A DNA stretch of 64,000 nt from Nitrospinaceae bacterium. Its GTDB lineage: Bacteria > Nitrospinota > Nitrospinia > Nitrospinales > JACRGP01. The notes under the pieces are model-generated. The model worked only from the letters and a program-made list of their open reading frames with translations, searched no databases and had not been told where the DNA came from. Below, piece after piece: positions 4,204 through 62,699 of the stretch (the first letter of the stretch is position 1; every line of letters begins with the position of its first letter). The translations under genes were made by a program, and so were the position numbers. The stretch covers positions 44,786-108,785 of the forward strand of contig JAJDBB010000075.1 in assembly GCA_029261555.1 (NCBI GenBank), written 5' to 3'.

Positions 4204-5085
4204 TTAGCCGGAAGCGAGGTTTTGATCCTCGCCTTCCTCCGTCGAATCGGTTTCAGTCTGAGAGGAATTTTCCAAATGTTCGTCCAAAGACCGAGGTACG
4301 TCTTCCGCCCCGGGCTGATCCAGTTGGGAAAATAATATGTGATCGACCCCCTCCTGAATTTCCAGGCTGGCGTTGGCGGCCCGGACGATTTTTTCCAAAT
4401 CCGAAATGAGTATCCGCTCTTCTTCGATGGAGCCCTCCAGATCCTTTTCCAACGACTTTATTTCCTCCAGCATCTGGTCTCTGTTGGATTCAAGAATCTC
4501 CTTTTTCTCCAGAGCCTCATCGTTCTTTGCGGAAATATCGACGTGCGCCTTTTCCATTTCCAGGCGCATTTTTTCTATGGACTGCAACTCGCCTTCCAAC
4601 CGCTTAAAGACGCCTGACAGGCTTTGCAGGTATTTATTGCGTCGCTCCATCAAAGCCTCGCGGCTCTGGTTTCCCGCAAGCGGAAGAGAAACCACCTTGC
4701 CGGAATTTTTGTCCTCCGGTTCTGGTTCCGCCTCTACTATTCCCAGCTGGACCTCTTCCGGATGGGCGCCTTCCAACAAAAGTTCGAATTTTTCCTTGAA
4801 CTTTTTTTCCTTCTCCTCGACCGATTGCAGGGAGGTCGACAGCTTGTCCATGTTGGCGTTGTATATTTCAATGTTATTGTTGATCGTGTCCAATTGTTTC
4901 TGATTCTTTTTCAACTTGTCCAACGCCCATTCCACGCGCCCGCGATGGGAAAATCGTTTCTGCTCCTTAAATCCGAGAACCTTGTTGAACGTTTCCACCA
5001 CGCGAACAAACTCACGCGCCGACCGAGCGCTTTGTTCGCGAATCTCGCGGTTTTTGTTGAAAATTTCCGAGCTATCGTTTTCCAT
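4204..5085 (-). CDS. Hypothetical coiled-coil protein with acidic C-terminus
   Basis: 293-aa ORF rich in E/K/L heptad-like stretches (LESNRDQMLEEIKSLEKDLEGSIEEE). No signal peptide and no recognisable catalytic motif. The competing plus-strand ORFs here are low-complexity. Confidence 0.6.
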   Translation of the reverse strand: MENDSSEIFNKNREIREQSARSAREFVRVVETFNKVLGFKEQKRFSHRGRVEWALDKLKKNQKQLDTINNNIEIYNANMDKLSTSLQSVEEKEKKFKEKFELLLEGAHPEEVQLGIVEAEPEPEDKNSGKVVSLPLAGNQSREALMERRNKYLQSLSGVFKRLEGELQSIEKMRLEMEKAHVDISAKNDEALEKKEILESNRDQMLEEIKSLEKDLEGSIEEERILISDLEKIVRAANASLEIQEGVDHILFSQLDQPGAEDVPRSLDEHLENSSQTETDSTEEGEDQNLASG

Positions 5086-16280: not shown

Positions 16281-16646
16281 TTAACCCAGTGGATCTTCCG
16301 GAATCAGATGTTCCCATTTCGGGTCGCCCTTGGGCTTGAAGTTCACGGTAACAATGAAGGAATCGCCTTCATAAAAATTGAGCTTAAAATTTCCGCCGCC
16401 GAACTGCTCATAAATGTATTGTTCTGGCCGGTCCTTCCACTGCTCAAAATCTTCCAACCTGTATTTGGCGATTTCGTAGAAAACGATAATACTGCCTTCG
16501 AAGACGCCGACCAGTAGAGTCAGGCGCACTCGGCTGTATATCTCACCAAAACGCGCGTCCATTTCCTCCTGGCTGGGATCGCGTTTTAATTCACGACGCA
16601 GTTTGGGCTTGTAATAATCCCGGAATTCTTTTTGTACCCAGAACAA
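16281..16646 (-). CDS. Hypothetical protein (start uncertain; non-ATG start in ORF track)
   Basis: 121-aa ORF between the fibre locus and mfd on the same strand. One hydrophobic stretch (LTLLVGVFEGSIIVFY). No recognisable motif and no clear RBS. Confidence 0.45.
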   Translation of the reverse strand: MFWVQKEFRDYYKPKLRRELKRDPSQEEMDARFGEIYSRVRLTLLVGVFEGSIIVFYEIAKYRLEDFEQWKDRPEQYIYEQFGGGNFKLNFYEGDSFIVTVNFKPKGDPKWEHLIPEDPLG

Positions 16647-16747: not shown

Positions 16748-17509
16748 TTATCGCCGACGCTCGGCAAGCGGGTCTATTTTTTCAAATCCCAGTGGAATCT
16801 GAGGCGGCTTAGAGAGGCCGACCTGGCTGAGGTATTCATCAAAAGCCGGGTCTTCATAAATTTCTTTAGGGATCGGCAGGCTTCGCCTTTTTGTATAATG
16901 GCTCCTCCCTTCTTCCTCACCGTCAATGGGCAAGCCATATTTCTTTTTGAACTCATCGGGAATGTCCACATTACTATCCAGCAGATAATTCATGATCGCC
17001 GGTTCCATGAACACATGCGATGGCAGTTTGGCCAGGGGATGGTCGGGATAAATCTCTTCCGGTTTGGGCAGAGGCGGCGGGCGAACCCAACGTTTTTTGC
17101 CCTTGGGCTCCAGAGAGGCTCGCCGTTCCGCCGGCGCGGCCTTGCCAACAACCTTCCGCGAGGCCGACGAAGCGGGTACGTACTGGCCGATACCGGTGAT
17201 CTTGATCTTGCTCCCGGCGATTTTTTCGTTCCACAACTCAACTTTGGAAAAATCGCGCAACAATTTCTTAACCAGCGCTTTCCAATCGGGAGCGCTGATC
17301 TCTACGGTGACAGGCGTCTCGTTCAACTCCTCGCGCAGGGAAAATTTTATGCCGCTTTTCTCGCCGATGGACTGCAACACCTTCGATAGTGGCTGGTTGA
17401 TGGATTTGAAATGGACGCCGTCTTTGTTCTGCTTTAGTTCAAAGTCCGCCGCCATGACGGGATGGACCAGGAATAAAAAAAGAAGTAGGGCCAGTAGCTT
17501 CATACGCAT
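16748..17509 (-). CDS. Secreted fibre-partner protein, copy 1 (STN/FecR-C-like N-domain, Pro-rich linker, conserved C-domain)
   Basis: Signal peptide MRMKLLALLLFLFLVHPVMA. The N-domain INQPLSKVLQSIGEKSGIKFSLREELNETPVTVEI...WKALVKKLL fits the secretin/TonB-receptor STN pattern. Followed by KKRWVRPPPLPKPEEIYPDHP. Close paralogue of 21238-21990. Confidence 0.8.
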   Translation of the reverse strand: MRMKLLALLLFLFLVHPVMAADFELKQNKDGVHFKSINQPLSKVLQSIGEKSGIKFSLREELNETPVTVEISAPDWKALVKKLLRDFSKVELWNEKIAGSKIKITGIGQYVPASSASRKVVGKAAPAERRASLEPKGKKRWVRPPPLPKPEEIYPDHPLAKLPSHVFMEPAIMNYLLDSNVDIPDEFKKKYGLPIDGEEEGRSHYTKRRSLPIPKEIYEDPAFDEYLSQVGLSKPPQIPLGFEKIDPLAERRR

Positions 17510-17520
17510 GGTCTATTTAC

Positions 17521-17585
17521 CTGATTTTACTGGATTGCTTCACGGAGCCTGTCCTGAGCTTGCCGAAGAGTTCGCAATGACGTAA
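17521..17585. repeat. REP/MITE-like palindromic element (ggattgcttc ... tcgcaatgacg family)
   Basis: ctggattgcttcacggagcctgtcctgagcttgccgaagagttcgcaatgacg has ATTGC/GCAAT termini. A second member with the same termini is at 19010-19050. Lies between the fibre A terminator and partner 1. Confidence 0.5.
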
Positions 17586-17591
17586 GGAAAA

Positions 17592-17628
17592 AAGCCGGGC
17601 GGGGGAAAACGATCCCCCCCACCCGCTA
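17592..17628 (-). terminator. Rho-independent terminator-like hairpin directly after fibre gene A
   Basis: Minus strand reads AGCGGGTGGGGGGGATCGTTTTCCCCCGCCCGGCT followed by TTTTTTCC. The same hairpin family follows fibre genes B and C. Confidence 0.65.
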
Positions 17629-17636
17629 GGTTAGAT

Positions 17637-18896
17637 TTAAAAGTCCTCAATCAAACCGCCGGCCGCCCAATCAAAGTTGGCAGGGGCGAAACGTACCAAC
17701 CCGCCGCTTACGCTGGAAGAGGTTCCGAGGGCGCTTCCCTGTTTTCCGCCGCTGACACTGGAATTAAGTCCAGAAGCGGAATTTAAGTTTCCGCCGCTGA
17801 CACTGGATTCAATGCCGGAGGCGGTATTAGAGAATCCGCCGCTTACGCTGGCAGAAGGTCCGGAAGCTATGTTCGATGTTCCACCACTGACACTGGAGGT
17901 GACGTCAAAGGCAATATTCAATGCCCCGCCACTGACGCTGGATATAGCGCCGGAGGCGGTACTTGATTTTCCACCGCTGACGCTGGCTTGAACTCCAGAA
18001 GCGATATTAAAGGTGCCTCCGCTGATGCTAGAATCCGTTCCGGAGGCTAGGTTGGAGTTTCCGCCGCTAACAATGGAGTACAATCCACTAGCGGTATTTT
18101 GTCTTCCACCCATGACCGAGGCATAAGCATTTGAGGAAATGTTATTCAGCCCAGCGACAATGCTTCCGTAGCTAGAATAGTTTGCGCCTTTGCCAGCAAT
18201 CAAGTTGTGCGAACCGGTCTTAATATTACCAAAAAGGTCGTTGACCTCGTTGTAACCAATAAAGAGGTTGCCGAGTCCGTTGACGGAACCGTCTGTGTCG
18301 CCAGAACCATCCACAATTTGCAAGTTCATGTTGGTGAATAGCAGGCGGTCGAAACCATTGGCGTCGGTGTCGCGCGTGACTCCGCTGAAACGGTCTTGAA
18401 GTTCCGTAATATCTGCTTCCACAAACGTCAGGTCGGCTGCTGCGCCATCTGCTCCGTCGGCGCCATCTGCTCCATTGGCTCCCGCTGGACCGGTCAAACC
18501 AATCGGTCCAATCAGTCCTTGTGGACCAGCAGGTCCAGCGGGACCGGCGACGCCTTGAATACCCTGTACCCCATCTACCCCGTCAGCGCCATCTGCTCCA
18601 TTGGCTCCCGCTGGACCGGTCAAACCAATCGGTCCAATCAATCCCTGCGCTCCGTCGTTTCCATCAGCTCCGTCAGCGCCATCAGCGCCTGCTGGGCCCT
18701 GCGGGCCGGGGGTCAGTTGAATGTTATCCAATTGAGTCTGGAGACTAGCTACCAAAATTTGAAGCGCGGCTACTTGTTGCGACAGGCTGTTACCATTTCC
18801 ATTTCCGTTCCCATTTCCCGCTTGGGCATTTGCCCCGACGAACAACAGGCTGACCATTAAAACCATGGCCATTTCAGTTTTGAGAATGCGTTTCAT
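17637..18896 (-). CDS. Secreted collagen-like / beta-repeat fibre protein, paralogue A (419 aa)
   Basis: Cleavable-looking signal peptide (VGANAQA/GNGNGNGN) and coiled coil [24 protein letters not shown]. Uninterrupted G-X-Y from about aa 64 to 151 (18444-18707). Conserved neck [34 protein letters not shown]. About 11 repeats of the 15-aa unit SSVSGGxxNxASGxx, then a C-terminal DWAAGGLIEDF. Confidence 0.9.
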   Translation of the reverse strand: MKRILKTEMAMVLMVSLLFVGANAQAGNGNGNGNGNSLSQQVAALQILVASLQTQLDNIQLTPGPQGPAGADGADGADGNDGAQGLIGPIGLTGPAGANGADGADGVDGVQGIQGVAGPAGPAGPQGLIGPIGLTGPAGANGADGADGADGAAADLTFVEADITELQDRFSGVTRDTDANGFDRLLFTNMNLQIVDGSGDTDGSVNGLGNLFIGYNEVNDLFGNIKTGSHNLIAGKGANYSSYGSIVAGLNNISSNAYASVMGGRQNTASGLYSIVSGGNSNLASGTDSSISGGTFNIASGVQASVSGGKSSTASGAISSVSGGALNIAFDVTSSVSGGTSNIASGPSASVSGGFSNTASGIESSVSGGNLNSASGLNSSVSGGKQGSALGTSSSVSGGLVRFAPANFDWAAGGLIEDF

Positions 18897-19007: not shown

Positions 19008-19236
19008 TTTCTGGATTGCTTCGTCACTTCCGTTCCTCGCAATGACGCATGGACCGTCGTCGCGAGCGACCCACCGGCGAAGCTCCGGGTTATTATTCCC
19101 CCCTGCAAGGGGGGCGAGGGGGGTTGTTTCTCTAAAATTTTCAATGGTCGTCGGGTAGCAGTTTCAAAAAGAAAAACCGATCCATCAAATTTCTTAAAGG
19201 AAGAATCACCCCAACCCTCTTTGCAAGAGGGAGCAA
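19008..19236. repeat. Cluster of GC-rich palindromic (REP-like) elements occupying the slot where a partner gene would be expected after fibre gene B
   Basis: Contains ggattgcttcgtcacttccgttcctcgcaatgacg, the palindromes cccccctgcaagggggg/cgagggggg and ccctctttgcaagaggg. The ORFs here (e.g. 19001-19312) translate to the low-information ...ASLRGTEVTKQS / PLQGG peptides typical of such repeats. Confidence 0.55.
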
Positions 19237-19270
19237 AGCCGGGCGGGGGAAAACGATCCCCCACCCGGCT
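19237..19270 (-). terminator. Terminator-like hairpin after fibre gene B (weak U-tract)
   Basis: Minus strand reads AGCCGGGTGGGGGATCGTTTTCCCCCGCCCGGCT followed by TTGC. Homologous to the hairpins at 17592-17628 and 22027-22060. Confidence 0.5.
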
Positions 19271-19278
19271 ATTTGGAA

Positions 19279-21036
19279 TTAAAAGTCCTGAAACAATCCA
19301 CCAGCTCTCCAATCATCAAGGCCCGAGGCGGTACGCCCGGTGCCACCGCTCACACTAGATTCGAGACCAGAGGCCGCATTGAAATGACCGCCACTAACGC
19401 TGGATTCTTGGCCTGTGGCATTGTTACCATTCCCACCACTGACACTAGCGCGGCGTCCAACTGCGGAATTTTGAATTCCGCCACTGACGCTGGACTCCAC
19501 TCCAGAGGCGGCATTATCACTTCCGCCGCTGACGCTGGACCTGCTTCCGGAGGCGATATTAGTGATTCCCCCGCTGACGCTGGAAACTTCTCCGGAGGCG
19601 GTGTTAAATTGACCGCCACTGACGCTGGAACCACCTCCATCGGCACTACCATTGTCCCCCCCGCTGACGCTGGAATTAGTTCCGAAGGCTGTGTTAATAC
19701 TACCGCCGCTGACGCTAGCGAGGTCGCCGGAGGCGGAGTTTAAGACGCCGCCGCTGACGCTGGAAGCGGCGCCGCTAGCGTCTCCCCGGTCCCCGCCGCT
19801 GACGCTGGAATTAATTCCGGAGGCGGTGTTAACGCTTCCGCCGCTAACGCTGGAATTAATTCCGGAAGCAGTGTTTGATAAACCGCCGCCGACGCTGGCA
19901 AAATCGCCGATGGCCTGGTTGGCATCGCCGCCGTTAACGCTTGAGTTAAACCCAGAGGCGATGTTTCGGATCCCTCCGCTGATGCTAGCGAAATCGCCGG
20001 TGGCCTGGTTGCGTTGTCCATTCGTAACCGAGGCGTAAGTTCCCGACGACACGTTGTTCAGCCCGGCGACAATACCGCCATAACTGGAATAATTGAGTCC
20101 TTTACCTACAACCAGATTATGGGAACCGCTCTTGTCATTGGCAGGCAATCCACCGCCGAGGAACGGGAAAATATCCTCGTTGTAGCCGATAATTACGTTG
20201 CCGGTTCCGTTGACAATACCATTAGTATCGCCGGACCCATCAACAACCTGCAAATTCATACCGGTGAATAGCAGACGGTCGAAGCCGTTAGCGTCCGTGT
20301 CGCGCGTGACGCCGCTTAGACGGCCTTGCAGTTCAGTAATATCCGCTTCCACAAGAGTCAGATCCGCGGCCGCACCATCGGCTCCGTCAGCTCCATCGGC
20401 GCCATCGGCTCCTGCCGGGCCGGTCAATCCAATCGGCCCGATCAATCCTGGCGCTCCATCGGCGCCATCAGCTCCGTCTGAACCATTAGCTCCTGCAGGT
20501 CCGGTCAATCCAATCGGTCCAATCAATCCTTGTGCGCCATCTGCTCCATCAGCGCCGTCTGAACCATTAGCTCCTGCGGGTCCGGTCAAACCAATCGGTC
20601 CGATCAAACCTTGTGCGCCATCTGCTCCATCAGCGCCGTCTGAACCATTAGCTCCTGCGGGTCCGGTCAAACCAATCGGTCCAATCAATCCTTGCGCCCC
20701 GTCGGCTCCATCCGCTCCATCTGCGCCGTCATTCCCTGTTGGTCCTTGAGGTCCAGCGGGGCCTTGAGGGCCGGGCGTCAGTACTATGTTTTCCAATTGA
20801 GTTTGCAGGCTGGCCACCAAGGCTTCGAGTTCGGCGACACGATGCTTCAAGCCGTGTTTTTTCCCATGACCTTTTTTATCATCGTCGTCATCATCGTGGT
20901 CCTTATGTTTTTTCTTGGCGTACGCCACTCCGGTCCACTGGGGGTCGTCAATTACTAACCCCGCCCCCAGTTGCACGAACAAAAACAAAAACGCCAAGCC
21001 AAAAACCAGCGCCGATTTCTTCAATTGGACATTCAT
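19279..21036 (-). CDS. Secreted collagen-like / beta-repeat fibre protein, paralogue B (585 aa)
   Basis: N-terminal hydrophobic segment [21 protein letters not shown], charged box [22 protein letters not shown] and coiled coil [22 protein letters not shown] from aa 89 to 221 (20374-20772). Same neck as A, about 16 SSVSGG-type 15-mers and a C-terminal DDWRAGGLFQDF. Confidence 0.9.
   Translation of the reverse strand: MNVQLKKSALVFGLAFLFLFVQLGAGLVIDDPQWTGVAYAKKKHKDHDDDDDDKKGHGKKHGLKHRVAELEALVASLQTQLENIVLTPGPQGPAGPQGPTGNDGADGADGADGAQGLIGPIGLTGPAGANGSDGADGADGAQGLIGPIGLTGPAGANGSDGADGADGAQGLIGPIGLTGPAGANGSDGADGADGAPGLIGPIGLTGPAGADGADGADGADGAAADLTLVEADITELQGRLSGVTRDTDANGFDRLLFTGMNLQVVDGSGDTNGIVNGTGNVIIGYNEDIFPFLGGGLPANDKSGSHNLVVGKGLNYSSYGGIVAGLNNVSSGTYASVTNGQRNQATGDFASISGGIRNIASGFNSSVNGGDANQAIGDFASVGGGLSNTASGINSSVSGGSVNTASGINSSVSGGDRGDASGAASSVSGGVLNSASGDLASVSGGSINTAFGTNSSVSGGDNGSADGGGSSVSGGQFNTASGEVSSVSGGITNIASGSRSSVSGGSDNAASGVESSVSGGIQNSAVGRRASVSGGNGNNATGQESSVSGGHFNAASGLESSVSGGTGRTASGLDDWRAGGLFQDF
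20458..20700 (-). repeat. Three near-perfect 81-nt in-frame tandem repeats inside the collagen region of fibre gene B
   Basis: The marker gtctgaaccattagctcctgc recurs at 20476, 20557 and 20638 (period exactly 81). Each unit encodes [27 protein letters not shown] (27 aa, 9 G-X-Y triplets). Confidence 0.9.
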
Positions 21037-21237: not shown

Positions 21238-21990
21238 TTATTGCTGTTCCGGGAACTGCGGGGGTTTGGGAAGATTGACCGCGTCGAGGTATTCCTGAAA
21301 GGCGGGATCGTCGTAGATATGCGGCGGGATAGGATAAATCTTGCGGGGAATCTCGGCAACCTCCTCCTCGCCATCCCCATCCCCATAGACGTCCAACCCG
21401 TATTTCTTCTTAAACTCGGGAGGAATGTCCACCTTGCTCTTCAATAAATAGTCCATGACCGCCGATTCCATAAAAATATGCGTCGGCAGTTTGGCCAGGG
21501 GGTGGTCGGGATAAATCTCTTCGGGTTTGGGCGGAGGCGGCGGGCGGACCCAACGTTTTTTGCGCTTGGACTTCCCGGAAAGGTCCAGCTTGGCCTGCGA
21601 TTGCCCGGACGCGTCGCCGGAAACAGCCTTCGACGGCGACGGGGCGGTTCCCGGCACGTACTGGCCAATACCGGTGATCCTGATCCGGCTCCCGGCGATT
21701 TTTTCGTTCCACAACTCGACCTTGGAAAAATCGCGCAACAATTTCTTCACAAGGGCTTTCCAGTCCGCCGCCTCAATTTCCACAGTGACGGGCGTCTCGT
21801 TTAACTCCTCGCGCAGGGAAAAGTCTATGCCACTTTGCTCGCCGATCGCTTGCAAAACTTTAGACAGCGGCTGGTCCACCGCATACAATTGGACCCTCCC
21901 ATGGTTCCGGGTCAGTTCAAAATTGTCGTCCCCAAAAACCGGAGCGGCGAACAAACAAACGCTGAAAATTATTAGAAACAACAGGCGCAT
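21238..21990 (-). CDS. Secreted fibre-partner protein, copy 2 (STN/FecR-C-like N-domain, Pro-rich linker)
   Basis: I place the start at the ATG at 21990 (MRLLFLIIFSVCLFAAPVFG signal peptide) by analogy with copy 1. The ORF track starts at an upstream TTG (22008). VDQPLSKVLQAIGEQSGIDFSLREELNETPVTVEI... and KKRWVRPPPPPKPEEIYPDHPLAKLP are nearly identical to copy 1. Confidence 0.8.
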   Translation of the reverse strand: MRLLFLIIFSVCLFAAPVFGDDNFELTRNHGRVQLYAVDQPLSKVLQAIGEQSGIDFSLREELNETPVTVEIEAADWKALVKKLLRDFSKVELWNEKIAGSRIRITGIGQYVPGTAPSPSKAVSGDASGQSQAKLDLSGKSKRKKRWVRPPPPPKPEEIYPDHPLAKLPTHIFMESAVMDYLLKSKVDIPPEFKKKYGLDVYGDGDGEEEVAEIPRKIYPIPPHIYDDPAFQEYLDAVNLPKPPQFPEQQ

Positions 21991-22026: not shown

Positions 22027-22060
22027 AGCCGGGCGGGGGAAGACGATCCTCCGCCCGGCT
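22027..22060 (-). terminator. Rho-independent terminator-like hairpin between fibre gene C and partner gene 2
   Basis: Minus strand reads AGCCGGGCGGAGGATCGTCTTCCCCCGCCCGGCT (10-bp GC stem) followed by TTTTCCTTT. It lies 9 nt after the fibre stop and about 36 nt before the partner ATG. Confidence 0.7.
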
Positions 22061-22068
22061 AGTTGGAT

Positions 22069-24024
22069 TTAAAAGTCCTCAATCAAACTACCGGCCGCCC
22101 AGTCATAAGGAGCCGGGGCGAAACGCGTAAACCCTCCGCTGACGCTGGAAGCGTCGCCGATGGCGCTTCCCTGGTCTCCGCCGCTAACGCTGGAATTTAT
22201 CCCGGAGGCGGTATTTGAGCTTCCGCCGCTAACGCTGGATCTAATCCCGGAGGCAGTGTTCTGAAATCCGCCGCTAACGCTGGAACGGCTTCCAGAAGCG
22301 ACGTTAAGTTCTCCGCCGCTGACGCTTGAATTGTCGGAGGACGCGGTGTTAGCGCTTCCGCCGCTAACGCTGGAATTATTTCCGGAGACTGTATTAGAGC
22401 TTCCGCCACTGACGCTGGAATTAATTCCGAAGGCGGCATTTGTAAATCCCCCGCTGATGCTGGAACCGGGACCGGAGGAGAAGTTATCGGCCCCACCACT
22501 GACGCTGGAATAAAAATCGTCGGCTTCGTTTCGGAACCCGCCGCTGATGCTGGATTGAATGCCGGAGGCAGTGTTCTGAAATCCGCCGCTGACGCTGGAG
22601 TTAAGTCCAGAGGCAACGTTAAGTTCTCCACCGCTAACACTAGATTCAGTGCCCGAGGCGATATTAGAGATTCCGCCGCTGACGCTGGAGTTAAGTCCAG
22701 AGGCGACGTTAAGTTCTCCACCGCTAACACTAGATTCAGTGCCTGAGGCGGTATTAGAGAATCCGCCGCTGACGCTGGCAGAAGGTCCGGAAGCTGTGTT
22801 CGATGTTCCGCCACTGACACTTGAGGTAGGATGGGAAGCAATATTAAATGCCCCGCCGCTGATGCTGGATCCAAAATCGGAAGCGGCATTAGATACTCCA
22901 CCGCTGACGCTGGAAGCCTCGCTCCATGCGGTATTTAAACTCCCGCCACTGACGCTAGCGAAATTGTGGATGGCACGGTTGCGTTCGCCGCCGGTGACCG
23001 AGGCGTAATATCCCCCAGCAACGTTGTTCAGTCCGGCGACGATTCCGCCGTAGTAGGAATAATTGAGTCCTTTACCCACCACCAGATAGTGAGAACCGGA
23101 CTTGTCACTCGTCGGATTATTTCCGCGGAACGGGAAGATATCCTCGTTGTAGCCTATGATAACGTTGCCGACTCCGTTAACGACTCCATCGGTATCGCCA
23201 GAACCATCAACAACCTGCAGGTTCATGCCGGTGAACAGCAGACGGTCGAACCCGTTGACGTCCGTATCGCGCGTGACGCCGCTGAAACGGCCTTGCAATT
23301 CCGCGATATCCGCTTCAACAAGAGTCAAGTCCCCGCCGCCGGTACCCGCCGGACCCTCTGGTCCTATGGGACCAATCGGTCCAATGGGTCCTATCACTCC
23401 TTGAATACCCTGAGCTCCATCTGCTCCATCCGAACCATCAACTCCGTCGACTCCCGCCGGTCCGGTCAACCCAATCGGCCCGATCAATCCTTGTGCGCCA
23501 TCGGCTCCATCCGCTCCGTCCGATCCATCGGCTCCTGCCGGACCGGTCAAACCAATCGGTCCAATCAGTCCCTGTGCGCCATCGGCTCCGGCAGGTCCGG
23601 TCAAACCTATCGGTCCGATCAATCCTTGTGGTCCAGCGGGTCCAATAGGACCAACCGGCCCTATAGGTCCTTGTGCGCCATCGGTGCCATCGGCTCCATC
23701 AGTTCCATTCGTTCCCGCGGGACCCTGCGGTCCAGTTGGACCAGGATCGCCTTGAGGGCCGGGAGTCAGTTGGATATTATTCAGTTGAGTTTGAAGACTC
23801 GCGACAATATCCTGGAGTTGCGCGACGTTACGTTTCAATTTTTTTATCGTTCGATTTCCTTTTTTATCATCATCGTCATCGTCGTGGTCCTTGCCATTTT
23901 TCTTGGCGTACGCGACGCCGGTCCATTCGGGATCGTCAATGACAAGCCCGCTTCCCATCTGAACAAATAAAAACAGAAACGCCAGGCCAACTACCTGCAA
24001 CGATTTCTTCAATTGGATATTCAT
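22069..24024 (-). CDS. Secreted collagen-like / beta-repeat fibre protein, paralogue C (651 aa from the ATG at 24024)
   Basis: The start [42 protein letters not shown] aligns with the paralogue B start and follows the shared GAGGGGGAAGG RBS; the ORF-track start at 24117 adds 31 unsupported residues. Charged box [11 protein letters not shown] and a coiled coil follow. G-X-Y from aa 89 to about 230 (23335-23760), then the neck, about 20 SSVSGG 15-mers and a C-terminal [12 protein letters not shown]. Confidence 0.9.
22578..22757 (-). repeat. Two near-identical 90-nt in-frame tandem repeats in the beta-repeat region of fibre gene C
   Basis: gacgctggagttaagtccagaggc[ag]acgttaagttctccaccgctaacactagattcagtgcc occurs at 22591 and 22681 (period 90). 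Each unit encodes [30 protein letters not shown] (two 15-mers). Confidence 0.85.
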
Positions 24025-27407: not shown

Positions 27408-28475
27408 TTAATGATGTTCCGCCCCTGCTTCTTCATGAGATTCTTCGTGGGCCTCTTCGTCCATTGAAATCGCAGGAAGCTCCTCGACCTCTCCGGCTTC
27501 ATGCTCCAACTGGATTTCGCCTACAGGTTCTTCAGCGTGTCCGGCGTCGGCGTGAACTTCCTCAGCGGCCTCTTCGTGCCCGGACTCCTCTGCCTCGGCG
27601 TGACCTTCATCTTCGGCTTCATCTTCTTCGCCATGAGCCTCTTCAGCAGGCTCTTCTTCTTCATCGGCTTCGGCGGATTCATCCTCAGCGGCCTCTTCGT
27701 CTTCTGTTTCTTCACCGGCTTCAGCATGTCCTTCATCGGAAGCCTCTTCTTCGCCCGACTCTTCTTCGGCTGAAGCCTCATCCTCTGCGCCTTCACTCTC
27801 GCCGTCGTGTTCCTCAGCGGCGGCTTCGTCTTCTCCTCCGGCTTCTTCATGGGAACCAGCCGCGCCGGAAGTATCGCCTCCCAAACGCTCGATCAACGAC
27901 TCGAGATTTTGAATGGCCTCGTCTGTATCCGATCCGCCCCCCATTTCCTTAAGGGTGAGTATCGCTCTCTTCAGGCGTAAAATTTTAGCTTTACGCTCGG
28001 CGGCGTTCATCTTGTCTCGCAATCCTCCGACCTTCTTATTGATACCGGTGATGCTTGCGGAAACCTCTTCCTTGAAAGGCAGGAATTCATCGGTGATGCT
28101 TTTCAACGCGGCGTTGACCGACAGCATCTGAGTCTCTATGGAGGACACTTTGACTTGTTCCTGTTCGACGCCGGCCTGAACCCCGCGCAATTTATCGTCC
28201 AGATTTTGGACCATGAACCAGATAAAACCAACGCCCACAAGCACGCCGCCGACGGCAAGAATCGTCAGGGCTTTCATCATGTTAAACTGTTCCTGTACAG
28301 AGTCTATTCCCGGCAGGGGTTTGCCATATTCCGCCTTGAGGTCGTCTTCCTTGTGTTCTCCCTGCGCATAATAGGAGCTGGCGTCTTCCTTCGCTTCGCG
28401 CTTGATTTCTTCTATGCGCTCCTCATTGCTCTTTTCACCTGATTCTTTATCCATATCATCGCCGCTAACTGCCAT
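27408..28475 (-). CDS. Single-pass membrane coiled-coil protein with ~160-aa poly-acidic Glu/Ala/His tail
   Basis: One TM segment (ALTILAVGGVLVGVGFIWFMV) and a coiled-coil middle. The C-terminus is almost only E, A, D, G and H (…EEHDGESEGAEDEASAEEESGEEEASDEGHAEAGEETEDEE…HEESHEEAGAEHH). The other frames are low-complexity mirror ORFs. Confidence 0.7.
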   Translation of the reverse strand: MAVSGDDMDKESGEKSNEERIEEIKREAKEDASSYYAQGEHKEDDLKAEYGKPLPGIDSVQEQFNMMKALTILAVGGVLVGVGFIWFMVQNLDDKLRGVQAGVEQEQVKVSSIETQMLSVNAALKSITDEFLPFKEEVSASITGINKKVGGLRDKMNAAERKAKILRLKRAILTLKEMGGGSDTDEAIQNLESLIERLGGDTSGAAGSHEEAGGEDEAAAEEHDGESEGAEDEASAEEESGEEEASDEGHAEAGEETEDEEAAEDESAEADEEEEPAEEAHGEEDEAEDEGHAEAEESGHEEAAEEVHADAGHAEEPVGEIQLEHEAGEVEELPAISMDEEAHEESHEEAGAEHH

Positions 28476-62663: not shown

Positions 62664-62699
62664 AGCCGGTCGGGGGAAACCCGACCGGCTTTATTTTTT
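62664..62699. terminator. Bidirectional Rho-independent terminator between uppP and the convergent small secreted-protein gene
   Basis: aaaaaaAGCCGGTCGGGggaaaCCCGACCGGCTttatttttt. Confidence 0.8.

Follow-up and report, generated by a model that had tools for sequence, protein, structure and literature searches.

Three paralogous fibre genes in the window

The window, the whole stretch of 64,000 nt that was analysed, carries three neighbouring paralogous fibre genes, A, B and C, all on the minus strand. The other two paralogues are 68% and 67% identical to A in pairwise comparison, and no fourth fibre copy was found elsewhere in the 64-kb window. An earlier note on this DNA had described the three as built on one shared plan, and every part it described was located at the following positions, with counts that differ slightly from its own.

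22069–24024, minus strand: fibre gene C, 651 aa, span with stop codon included
23761–24024, minus strand: C, predicted signal peptide, K/D-rich segment and heptad helix
23329–23760, minus strand: C, collagen, 48 triplets
23095–23331, minus strand: C, neck
22105–23094, minus strand: C, beta-roll, 22 layers
22072–22104, minus strand: C, cap, 11 residues
19279–21036, minus strand: fibre gene B, 585 aa
20773–21036, minus strand: B, N-terminal part
20368–20772, minus strand: B, collagen, 45 triplets, with an 81-nt tandem repeat inside
20125–20364, minus strand: B, neck
19315–20124, minus strand: B, beta-roll, 18 layers
19282–19314, minus strand: B, cap, DWRAGGLFQDF
17637–18896, minus strand: fibre gene A, 419 aa
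18708–18896, minus strand: A, predicted classical signal peptide, (GN)5 and heptad helix
18438–18707, minus strand: A, collagen, 30 triplets
18213–18434, minus strand: A, neck
17673–18212, minus strand: A, beta-roll, 12 layers
17640–17672, minus strand: A, cap, DWAAGGLIEDF

A promoter-like region and one strong terminator-like hairpin of its own accompany each fibre gene:

22027–22060, minus strand: GC-rich hairpin then a T-run, 7 nt past the C stop, dG −28.1 kcal/mol, intrinsic-terminator-like
19237–19270, minus strand: near-identical hairpin past the B stop, dG −33.1 kcal/mol
17593–17627, minus strand: near-identical hairpin and T6 past the A stop, dG −26.7 kcal/mol

Upstream of B and C, sigma-70-like hexamers, TTGA(C/T)A-17-TCTA(A/C)T, were found by eye and are absent from the promoter-scan output, and inspection by eye gave no convincing match to sigma-54 or sigma-28 promoters in front of either gene. 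Because B and C share an upstream region that includes the ribosome-binding site GAGGGGGAA(A/G)GTAAAATG, ATG 24024 is probably where C really starts, as had been proposed, and the extension of its open reading frame to 24117 is probably an artefact. Among the flanking genes, which are cellular, are Mfd and flagellar genes, together with carbon-nitrogen hydrolase-like and agmatine-deiminase-like reading frames that were assigned by eye. The closest matches of the window proteins come from Nitronauta and Nitrospinaceae, which makes a marine member of the Nitrospinota the probable source of the DNA.

Signal peptides and a short heptad helix precede the stalk

All three proteins are predicted to carry signal peptides and to be exported by Sec. 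The signal peptide anticipated for A reads as a textbook cleavable one (ANAQA↓G), and in B and C the hydrophobic stretch can be aligned to the signal peptide, a classical one, of the nearest relative that has collagen, which disfavours a membrane anchor for these two proteins. The N-terminal anchor of the earlier note is not supported by these observations, since cleavage would leave A with only (GN)5, the stretch in B and C aligns with a signal peptide, and no lipobox Cys occurs in A, B or C. Residues 27–63 of A and 29–88 of B and C consist of a linker or charged segment and a helix; A lacks a candidate attachment segment. AlphaFold2 predicted the helix of A at residues 36–57, before the collagen, and its heptad a/d positions, read from the sequence, are V-L-V-L-L-I, which bears out the coiled-coil segment of about 20 residues that had been suggested. 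A search with residues 1–95 of C found no relatives sharing this N-terminal module.

An acidic collagen stalk

The stalk is an uninterrupted G-X-Y run, as first described, of 30 (A), 45 (B) and 48 (C) triplets rather than the 29, 44 and 47 originally counted. In the Collagen model check that had been called for, the three proteins scored 54–74 bits (E 1.5e-14 to 7e-21) against a Pfam gathering cut-off of 27.2, and at the level of sequence the collagen stalk is real. Its composition includes no Lys or Arg, 10–17 Asp per chain and Pro at 14–22% of X and Y positions. With such a composition triple-helix stability is unproven and may need cations. Monomer prediction (AlphaFold2/Foldseek) placed helices on both sides of the collagen and a trimeric-autotransporter-type head after it. 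An acidic, Lys/Arg-free collagen between two registering domains would make a test case for the stability rules of bacterial triple helices.

Legionella pneumophila Lcl and bacterial collagen-like proteins in general, such as Scl1/2 and BclA, resemble the window fibres in having a signal peptide, then G-X-Y tandem repeats with DNA-level units, followed by a C-terminal non-collagen domain. Lcl consists of a signal peptide, collagen repeats of varying number and a C-terminal domain, and acts in aggregation and biofilm formation; like the window fibres, it is a diderm protein without a barrel. However, the C-terminal domain of the window fibres is unrelated to that of Lcl and other bacterial collagen-like proteins, LPXTG is absent, and the NCBIfam Scl1/Scl2/Lcl equivalogs reached 47.8–97.1 bits against cut-offs of 325–500, through the collagen part only.

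A 15-residue beta-roll head of the UspA1 type

The neck, proposed to be conserved, is nearly invariant across A, B and C. In the head that follows, the motif S[VI][SGN]GG recurs at a spacing of exactly 15 residues with zero slip, in 8 (A), 15 (B) and 19 (C) strict copies. Full in-register layers, the first at SH(N/Y)L, number 12, 18 and 22, every layer contains an SGG doublet, and the DNA of the repeats has periodicities of 45, 90 and 135 nt. Thus, the 15-residue period reported earlier is exact, and the copy numbers of about 11, 16 and 20 give way to the in-register counts.

Sequence comparison matched the head to that of Moraxella catarrhalis UspA1 (3PR7) with E 2.6e-16, in register over 157 residues. 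AlphaFold2 modelled A with a pLDDT of ~95–98 through the roll, and the best PDB fold matches found with Foldseek were the trimeric autotransporter heads UspA1, CbpF and BoaA, with UspA1 at the top. The UspA1 (3PR7, 3NTN) and window heads share a left-handed parallel beta-roll, 15-residue layers and the layer consensus S-[ST]-[VI]-x-G-G-x-x-N-x-A-x-G; the heads of Fusobacterium CbpF and of Burkholderia BoaA and BpaC are also among the closest known systems. UspA1 is a 15-residue variant of the roll in which an additional Gly stands next to the invariant one (PMC9543794), and this known GG-doublet variant explains the odd period of the window heads. The likeness to YadA-head/Hep_Hag repeats therefore proved sound, the 3PR7 and Foldseek matches placing the roll in that class as a UspA1-type member. 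Judged from the alignment and the predicted model, homology links the head to that of UspA1, a trimeric autotransporter adhesin. Against Pfam UspA1_rep, the window proteins scored 16.7 and 14.4 bits, under the threshold of 27, and the relatives P0037 and P0066 scored above it.

The 11-residue ends listed for A and B follow the pattern DWxAGxLxxDF, which is present in all three proteins. The DWxAG end lies in the 15-residue register as a shortened last layer of the roll, and 86 of 120 relatives keep the motif. Conservation does not extend to the final Phe, the last residue across the family being N in 21, Q in 19, D in 12 and F in 9. The C-terminal motif singled out earlier is thus real, but its interpretation as a sorting tag ending in Phe is not borne out; with a variable last residue and a motif in roll register, the final Phe was rejected as a sorting or BAM-type signal and a solenoid cap fits better.

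No YadA_anchor or other barrel was matched in Pfam or NCBIfam, and the chain stops 11 residues past the last full layer, which upholds the claim that a C-terminal beta-barrel anchor is absent. The window fibres differ in this respect from trimeric autotransporters (type Vc), which have a YadA-type barrel anchor. They also differ in order, running from signal peptide through helix, collagen stalk and neck to head, whereas the autotransporters run from head through neck and stalk to anchor; in their stalk, which is collagen and not the long coiled coil of UspA1-type proteins; and in a family-specific entry neck and DWxAG cap that UspA1 does not have. This head is usually viewed as a type Vc part, and here its rare 15-residue UspA1 form lies C-terminally on barrel-less proteins with predicted Sec export.

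The head was also compared with the Lolium perenne ice-binding protein (3ULT; PF21300), which has the same roll fold with coils of 14–15 residues (E 1.4e-5). 3ULT, from a plant, is monomeric and stalkless, which weakens the earlier statement that every element forms obligate trimers and counts against a trimeric head. This match could suggest that the head is a surface for binding ice or other crystals or minerals, comparable to the ryegrass antifreeze protein, and that the stalk displays three such heads; several relatives, among them P0037 (46.9 bits) and P0103 (49.8 bits), exceed the Pfam LbR_Ice_bind cut-off of 30, the flat layers are rich in Ser, Thr, Asn and Ala, and the family is common in marine metagenomes. 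We consider such a role extremely improbable for the window proteins, which scored 22.5, 13.5 and 16.6 bits against that threshold and match UspA1 ten orders of magnitude more strongly. Furthermore, regular Ser/Asn ladders are structural in every roll of the class (PMC9543794), and there is no evidence for a cold-specific distribution.

Collagen combined with the same beta-roll head also occurs in phage and giant-virus fibres (collagen triple helix repeat, YadA-like and LbR_YadA-like proteins), some of them with Peptidase_S74. In the tail-fibre model check, PHROG tail-fibre families did match the window proteins, fold matches in BFVD included phage YadA-like and Pithovirus-bin collagen proteins, P0010 joins the same repeats to a phage structural-protein N-terminus, and in Nitronauta the neighbourhood of the partner-linked copy includes Bro-N, restriction-modification, ParDE and phage-sheath genes. 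The genes could on these grounds be tail-fibre-like remnants of a phage or giant virus and not encode envelope proteins. However, the top PHROG stretches fall wholly or largely within the collagen region, and a tblastn search of 50,697 phage records with the head gave no match; on these two results we rejected a phage origin as very improbable. Viral collagen/YadA-like proteins are virion parts without a signal peptide, whereas all window copies are predicted to have Sec signal peptides and each gene, in a cellular neighbourhood, has its own promoter-like region and terminator.

Genes for STN/N0-like proteins follow two of the fibre genes

Two related genes lie directly downstream of fibre genes C and A:

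21238–21990, minus strand: partner gene 2, ~250 aa from ATG 21990 (TTG 22008 in the list of open reading frames), directly downstream of C
16748–17509, minus strand: partner gene 1, 253 aa, 64% identical to partner 2, directly downstream of A

Partner 2 is laid out as a predicted signal peptide, an STN/secretin-N0-like domain, a K/R/Pro-rich linker and a small helical C-terminal domain. Its STN fold matches were PupR, FpvA, InvG and PilQ N0, with probabilities of 0.9–0.98 but E values of 0.02–0.1. Pfam, including STN PF07660, gave no match for the window partner proteins, and distant partner relatives have STN matches below threshold. The order of a fibre gene followed by a partner gene is conserved in several independent loci, occurring twice in the window and again in loci L002/L003, L007 and L008/L009. 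A genome scan with the partner profile found only two loci, one of them truncated and lacking a fibre gene. Five tandem Nitronauta fibre paralogues have no partner gene, which indicates that the partner is not a general requirement. Near the fibre genes, no component for export across the outer membrane or for anchoring was identified.

The neck-head-cap module belongs to a large family

At least 2,423 relatives of the neck, head and cap module were found, none of them annotated, and the module is C-terminal in all of them. Nearly all have non-collagen stalks. Some distant relatives have N-terminal SLH or CWB2 domains or lipoboxes, which places the N-terminus at the envelope, and others have N-terminal binding modules (CBM96, CBM_4_9, Big_5, FG-GAP), suggesting that the variable N-terminus, and not the head, may be the binding end in some members. 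In the relative P0082, the head is followed by Peptidase_S74, a trimerisation chaperone in phage spikes (PMC10769870). Members occur in Nitrospinota, Deltaproteobacteria, Planctomycetota, Myxococcota and Gammaproteobacteria. A literature search found nothing specific on this architecture or on Nitrospina collagen-like proteins.

Barrel-less fibres are also known in Bdellovibrio, where the MAT (mosaic adhesive trimer) fibres have a signal peptide and are displayed on a diderm surface. MAT proteins, trimeric and surface-located, resemble the window fibres in their signal peptide, C-terminal tip, lack of a barrel and large paralogous repertoire. They have a beta-rich domain of ~130 aa straight after the signal peptide and beta-prism fibres, whereas the window proteins have a short charged segment and a helix at that place. 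Membership of the MAT family was rejected because this domain is absent and the search with the N-terminal module was negative.

A model for the window fibres

On balance, A, B and C are probably Sec-exported, homotrimeric, barrel-less fibres that act in adhesion or aggregation. We infer the trimeric state, dimensions, surface location, adhesive function and role of the partner; of the possible models we find a trimeric rod the most reasonable, supported indirectly by the collagen run and by Peptidase_S74 in a relative, and by the combination of collagen with the same head in viral fibre proteins. Signal peptidase would remove the N-terminal signal peptide, and chain register would be set by the short heptad helix that precedes the collagen and by the helix-plus-beta neck and the head that follow it. 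The acidic G-X-Y run could then form a triple helix of about 26 (A), 39 (B) and 41 (C) nm, and the 12, 18 or 22 C-terminal layers a left-handed parallel UspA1-type beta-roll of ~6–11 nm closed by the DWxAG cap layer, giving whole rods of ~38, 54 and 59 nm whose free end is the head. Such a fibre may act like an autotransporter passenger or Legionella Lcl, in attachment to particles and surfaces or in cell-cell aggregation, with the stalk providing reach and the head or stalk surface the binding. Since the autotransporter barrel is absent, export across the outer membrane and retention on it would need another route, plausibly through the periplasmic STN/N0-like partner and, for B and C, also through the N-terminal segment rich in K, H and D. 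The two-gene unit of fibre and STN-like partner offers a concrete handle on how the fibres, if they are indeed on the surface, cross or attach to the outer membrane.

The same proteins could instead be released matrix or sheath components or periplasmic proteins, with neck, head and cap as the self-assembly or docking end and with stalk and variable N-terminus conferring the specific function. That A would be anchorless once its signal peptide is cleaved, that the C-terminal module is constant across the family while the N-terminus is variable, with binding modules in some members, and that Lcl builds supramolecular assemblies are all consistent with such a role. We nevertheless regard it as unlikely, given that the SLH, CWB2 and lipobox members put the N-terminus at the envelope and that rods of 38–59 nm, as estimated from residue counts, would exceed a typical periplasm.

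Returning to the adhesive fibres that we favour, the module marks a large unstudied family with thousands of unannotated relatives. As a speculative extension, which we hold to be improbable, neck, head and DWxAG cap might define barrel-less fibres, similar to trimeric autotransporters, that form a very large and as yet unnamed class in environmental diderms and that reach the surface and stay attached to it independently of type V secretion; the Nitrospinota subgroup would use the periplasmic STN/N0-like partner, which could serve, for instance, as the adaptor to a secretin or to some other component of the outer membrane. Nitrospinota have a major part in marine nitrite oxidation, and adhesive fibres in a series of lengths would be relevant to how they attach to particles and aggregate.

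Three paralogous genes encode fibre proteins with a collagen stalk

The fibre genes A, B and C all lie on the minus strand:

17637-18896, minus strand, fibre gene A (419 aa)
19279-21036, minus strand, fibre gene B (585 aa)
22069-24024, minus strand, fibre gene C (651 aa)

Pairwise comparison revealed 68% (B) and 67% (C) identity to A. The open reading frame of C could reach back as far as 24117; since B and C have in common an upstream region and a ribosome-binding site ahead of MN(V/I)QLKK, the start at 24024 chosen in the earlier note is likely correct. The architecture described there was confirmed in all three paralogues, with slight corrections to the counts: a hydrophobic N-terminus is followed by a heptad helix, a G-X-Y run, a neck, 15-residue repeats and the terminal DWxAGxL(I/F)(E/Q)DF. 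The heptad-pattern helix before the collagen includes ...VA(A/E/Q)L(Q/E) in each protein and spans residues 36-57 of A in the AlphaFold2 prediction, and the neck is almost invariant among the three. Two other minus-strand reading frames were observed in the region. One encodes 121 aa between partner gene 1 and mfd (16281-16646), with no match in Pfam or NCBIfam; the other (27408-28475) encodes 355 aa, with a single hydrophobic segment and a C-terminal half in which nearly all residues are Glu, Ala, Asp, Gly or His.

The collagen run is uninterrupted, as had been noted, but comprises 30 (A), 45 (B) and 48 (C) triplets rather than 29, 44 and 47, and the window proteins match the Pfam Collagen model above threshold (E 1.5e-14 to 7e-21). 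Low confidence is to be expected when one chain is modelled alone, and pLDDT is <50 across most of this region in the AlphaFold2 model of A. With 0.286 nm taken for each residue, the residue counts predict collagen lengths of 25.7 (A), 38.6 (B) and 41.2 nm (C). Lys and Arg are absent from the collagen, each chain has 10-17 Asp, and Pro occupies only 14-22% of the X and Y positions. The collagen DNA of B (20371-20723; 4.4 copies, 88% matches) and C (23408-23630) contains 81-nt (27-aa) tandem units; by analogy with Legionella lcl, these VNTR-like repeats could make stalk length changeable.

The head is a UspA1-type beta-roll with a probable C-terminal cap

The 15-residue head repeat proved real and strictly periodic, the S[VI][SGN]GG motif recurring at exactly 15 residues with zero slips in the three heads, although the full in-register layers number 12 (A), 18 (B) and 22 (C), not about 11, 16 and 20. 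The head DNA displays tandem periods of 45, 90 and 135 nt, including a 90-nt, two-layer unit in C (22580-22794; 2.4 copies, 91% identity), and the head seems to grow by recent tandem duplication of one- to three-layer units, comparable to the triplet-layer expansion of BpaC.

Searched against all PDB chains, the neck-head-cap part of A matched 3PR7, the head of UspA1 from Moraxella catarrhalis, with E 2.6e-16 over 157 residues in register, and the ryegrass ice-binding protein 3ULT, which has the same roll fold but is monomeric, matched with E 1.4e-5. The AlphaFold2 model of A, built on a 65-sequence alignment, has pLDDT ~95-98 over most of the repeat region, and a Foldseek search of the PDB returned UspA1 at the top, followed by CbpF of Fusobacterium, BoaA, UspA1 3NTN, 3ULT, EibD and YadA. 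UspA1 carries an extra conserved Gly adjoining the invariant Gly (PMC9543794). Because the window proteins have an SGG doublet in every layer, the odd 15-residue period corresponds to this known UspA1 variant of the trimeric-autotransporter head. Ordered waters along the roll are spaced 4.6-4.8 Å (PMC9543794), consistent with the ~0.48 nm per layer, the usual strand spacing, that we assumed; head length would thus be ~6 (A), 9 (B) and 11 nm (C), and the whole rod including the helices ~38, 54 and 59 nm, respectively.

The C-terminal end had been read as a conserved tag ending in Phe. The motif is indeed family-wide, with [DNE]W.[AG] at the terminus of 86 of the 120 best relatives and the Trp at least 90% conserved in the alignment of 65 family members, but the terminal Phe is not part of it: the final residue of these relatives is N in 21, Q in 19, D in 12, F in 9 and another residue in the rest. 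DWAAGGLIEDF in A occupies, in register, the first 11 positions that a further 15-residue layer would have. The motif reads best as a cap closing the solenoid and may have an additional recognition role.

The N-termini resemble cleavable signal peptides

A begins with a Sec signal peptide of textbook form (MKRILKTE, then 13 hydrophobic core residues and an ANAQA|G cleavage site); because solely (GN)5 and the helix remain after it, A has no anchor. In B and C, MN(V/I)QLKK precedes ~22 hydrophobic residues, previously read as a possible anchor. This stretch aligns onto the classical signal peptide (...SAPAALA|KN) of the closest collagen-bearing relative found, encoded on ENA contig L007, and the N-termini of B and C contain no lipobox Cys, so that a cleavable signal peptide is the more economical reading. 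Past the signal peptide, B (~20875-20950) and C (~23863-23938) have a Lys/His-rich segment with an uninterrupted run of six Asp (10 K+R and 11 D+E); the same unusual segment, with seven Asp, follows the signal peptide of the L007 relative (4575-4800). A lacks it, and no relatives were found when the N-terminal module was used as query.

The neck-head-cap module defines a large family

With a query running from the last collagen triplet of C through its neck and head to the cap (E ≤ 1e-3), we found at least 2,423 matching proteins among the 8,000 candidates scored, with identity of at most 55-59%. Named matches are "hypothetical protein" and occasionally "trimeric autotransporter adhesin", from Candidatus Nitronauta litoralis (Nitrospinota), Deltaproteobacteria, Planctomycetota, Myxococcota and Gammaproteobacteria. 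Most of the sequences that were read or scanned carry the module at the C-terminus behind some other part, usually a coiled coil; collagen is rare, with 8 or more triplets in only 2 of the 120 best matches plus the L007 protein. Five tandem paralogues of Candidatus Nitronauta litoralis (CP048685; L001, 3724-11056) share neck, head and cap and have classical signal peptides, with coiled-coil rather than collagen stalks.

Some members carry lipoboxes (e.g., LVGC in P0001 and VLSC in P0062), an N-terminal SLH domain (P0019) or CWB2 (P0072 and P0108). Other N-terminal domains are CBM96, CBM_4_9 with Big_5, and FG-GAP; the carbohydrate-binding modules at this end suggest that in some members the head is not the binding end. 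P0082 has a Peptidase_S74 domain C-terminal to the head, an intramolecular chaperone ensuring productive trimerisation in phage spikes (PMC10769870) and in Bdellovibrio MAT fibres.

Terminator-like hairpins separate fibre and partner genes

Near-identical, GC-rich hairpins with a T-run follow the three fibre genes, and A and C are each followed by a partner gene:

17593-17627, minus strand, hairpin and T-run after the A stop (dG -26.7 kcal/mol)
19237-19270, minus strand, hairpin and T-run after the B stop (dG -33.1 kcal/mol)
22027-22060, minus strand, hairpin and T-run after the C stop (dG -28.1 kcal/mol)
16748-17509, minus strand, partner 1, directly past the A hairpin
21238-21990, minus strand, partner 2, directly past the C hairpin

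The 13-mer hairpin core is confined to the fibre genes within the window, except for one unrelated one-mismatch match (62664-62676). The hairpins may lower partner relative to fibre expression, a pattern seen with major structural subunits. Between B and A (19013-19046, minus strand) is an intergenic element, GTCATTGCGAGGAACGGAAGTGACGAAGCAATCC, with a looser copy after the A terminator near 17535-17585 and related sequence seemingly upstream of a partner gene at locus L006 (2-208); it may be a small repeat element.

In the paralogous partners (64% identical; ~250 residues each), a signal peptide is followed by an N-terminal domain, a linker rich in K, R and Pro, and a C-terminal domain that is small and helical; they matched no family in Pfam or NCBIfam. 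A word-indexed search returned only 9 relatives, and an exhaustive profile search 282 representatives at E ≤ 1e-3 (105 at E ≤ 1e-10). The N-terminal domain (pLDDT 78-88, AlphaFold2) matches the fold of STN/secretin-N0 domains of PupR, FpvA, InvG, PilQ and XcpQ with probability 0.9-0.98 and weak E values of 0.02-0.1; distant relatives have Pfam STN matches below threshold. In these relatives the STN-like domain occurs in fusions with PASTA, metallopeptidase or signal-peptidase modules, as would suit an extracytoplasmic interaction domain.

A partner directly follows the fibre gene in Nitronauta litoralis (L002, gap 13 bp; L003 is arranged alike) and on three metagenome contigs: after the collagen-bearing fibre gene on L007, and after a fibre-family gene on two Logan contigs (L008, L009). 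In contrast, one Nitrospinaceae genome (L004) lacks a fibre gene and its sole partner is truncated, and no partner gene accompanies the five tandem paralogues of Nitronauta. The pairing is thus conserved but not universal.

Proposed assembly and relation to viral fibres

In the proposed mechanism, the chains would be exported by Sec and their signal peptides cleaved; the heptad helix ahead of the collagen and, behind it, the neck helix and head would put three chains in register in the predicted trimer, and the G-X-Y run would then wind into a putative triple helix of unproven stability. The fibres would act like trimeric-autotransporter passengers or Legionella Lcl, which is likewise built of a signal peptide, collagen repeats and a C-terminal domain, varies in repeat number, and functions in auto-aggregation, attachment and biofilm formation. 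Bdellovibrio MAT fibres, likewise barrel-less with a signal peptide and yet surface-located in a diderm, provide a precedent for surface location. Candidate elements for passage across the outer membrane and retention on it are the STN-domain partner and, in B and C, the K/H/D-rich segment.

A Foldseek search of predicted viral structures returned, from bins of Pithovirus-like and Marseillevirus-like origin, proteins named "Collagen triple helix repeat protein", and "YadA-like" and "LbR_YadA-like" proteins of uncultured phages, so the combination of collagen with a roll head is already present in viral fibres. As for the window genes, a tblastn search of 50,697 phage records with the head found nothing, the best-scoring PHROG stretches fall wholly or mostly within the collagen region, and nearby lie mfd, flagellar genes and ORFs that, by eye, resemble polyamine-pathway genes. 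Together with the signal peptides, these results indicate that A, B and C are cellular genes. The parts themselves (bacterial collagen, UspA1-type roll, STN fold) are all known; new are the joining of collagen and roll in a barrel-less cellular protein exported by Sec, the large size of the unannotated neck-head-cap family and the dedicated partner gene. At L002 (8821-16762), the partner-linked Nitronauta fibre gene adjoins Bro-N, an Eco57I-type restriction-modification enzyme, ParDE and a phage-sheath-domain gene, a neighbourhood that may be a mobile or defence island.
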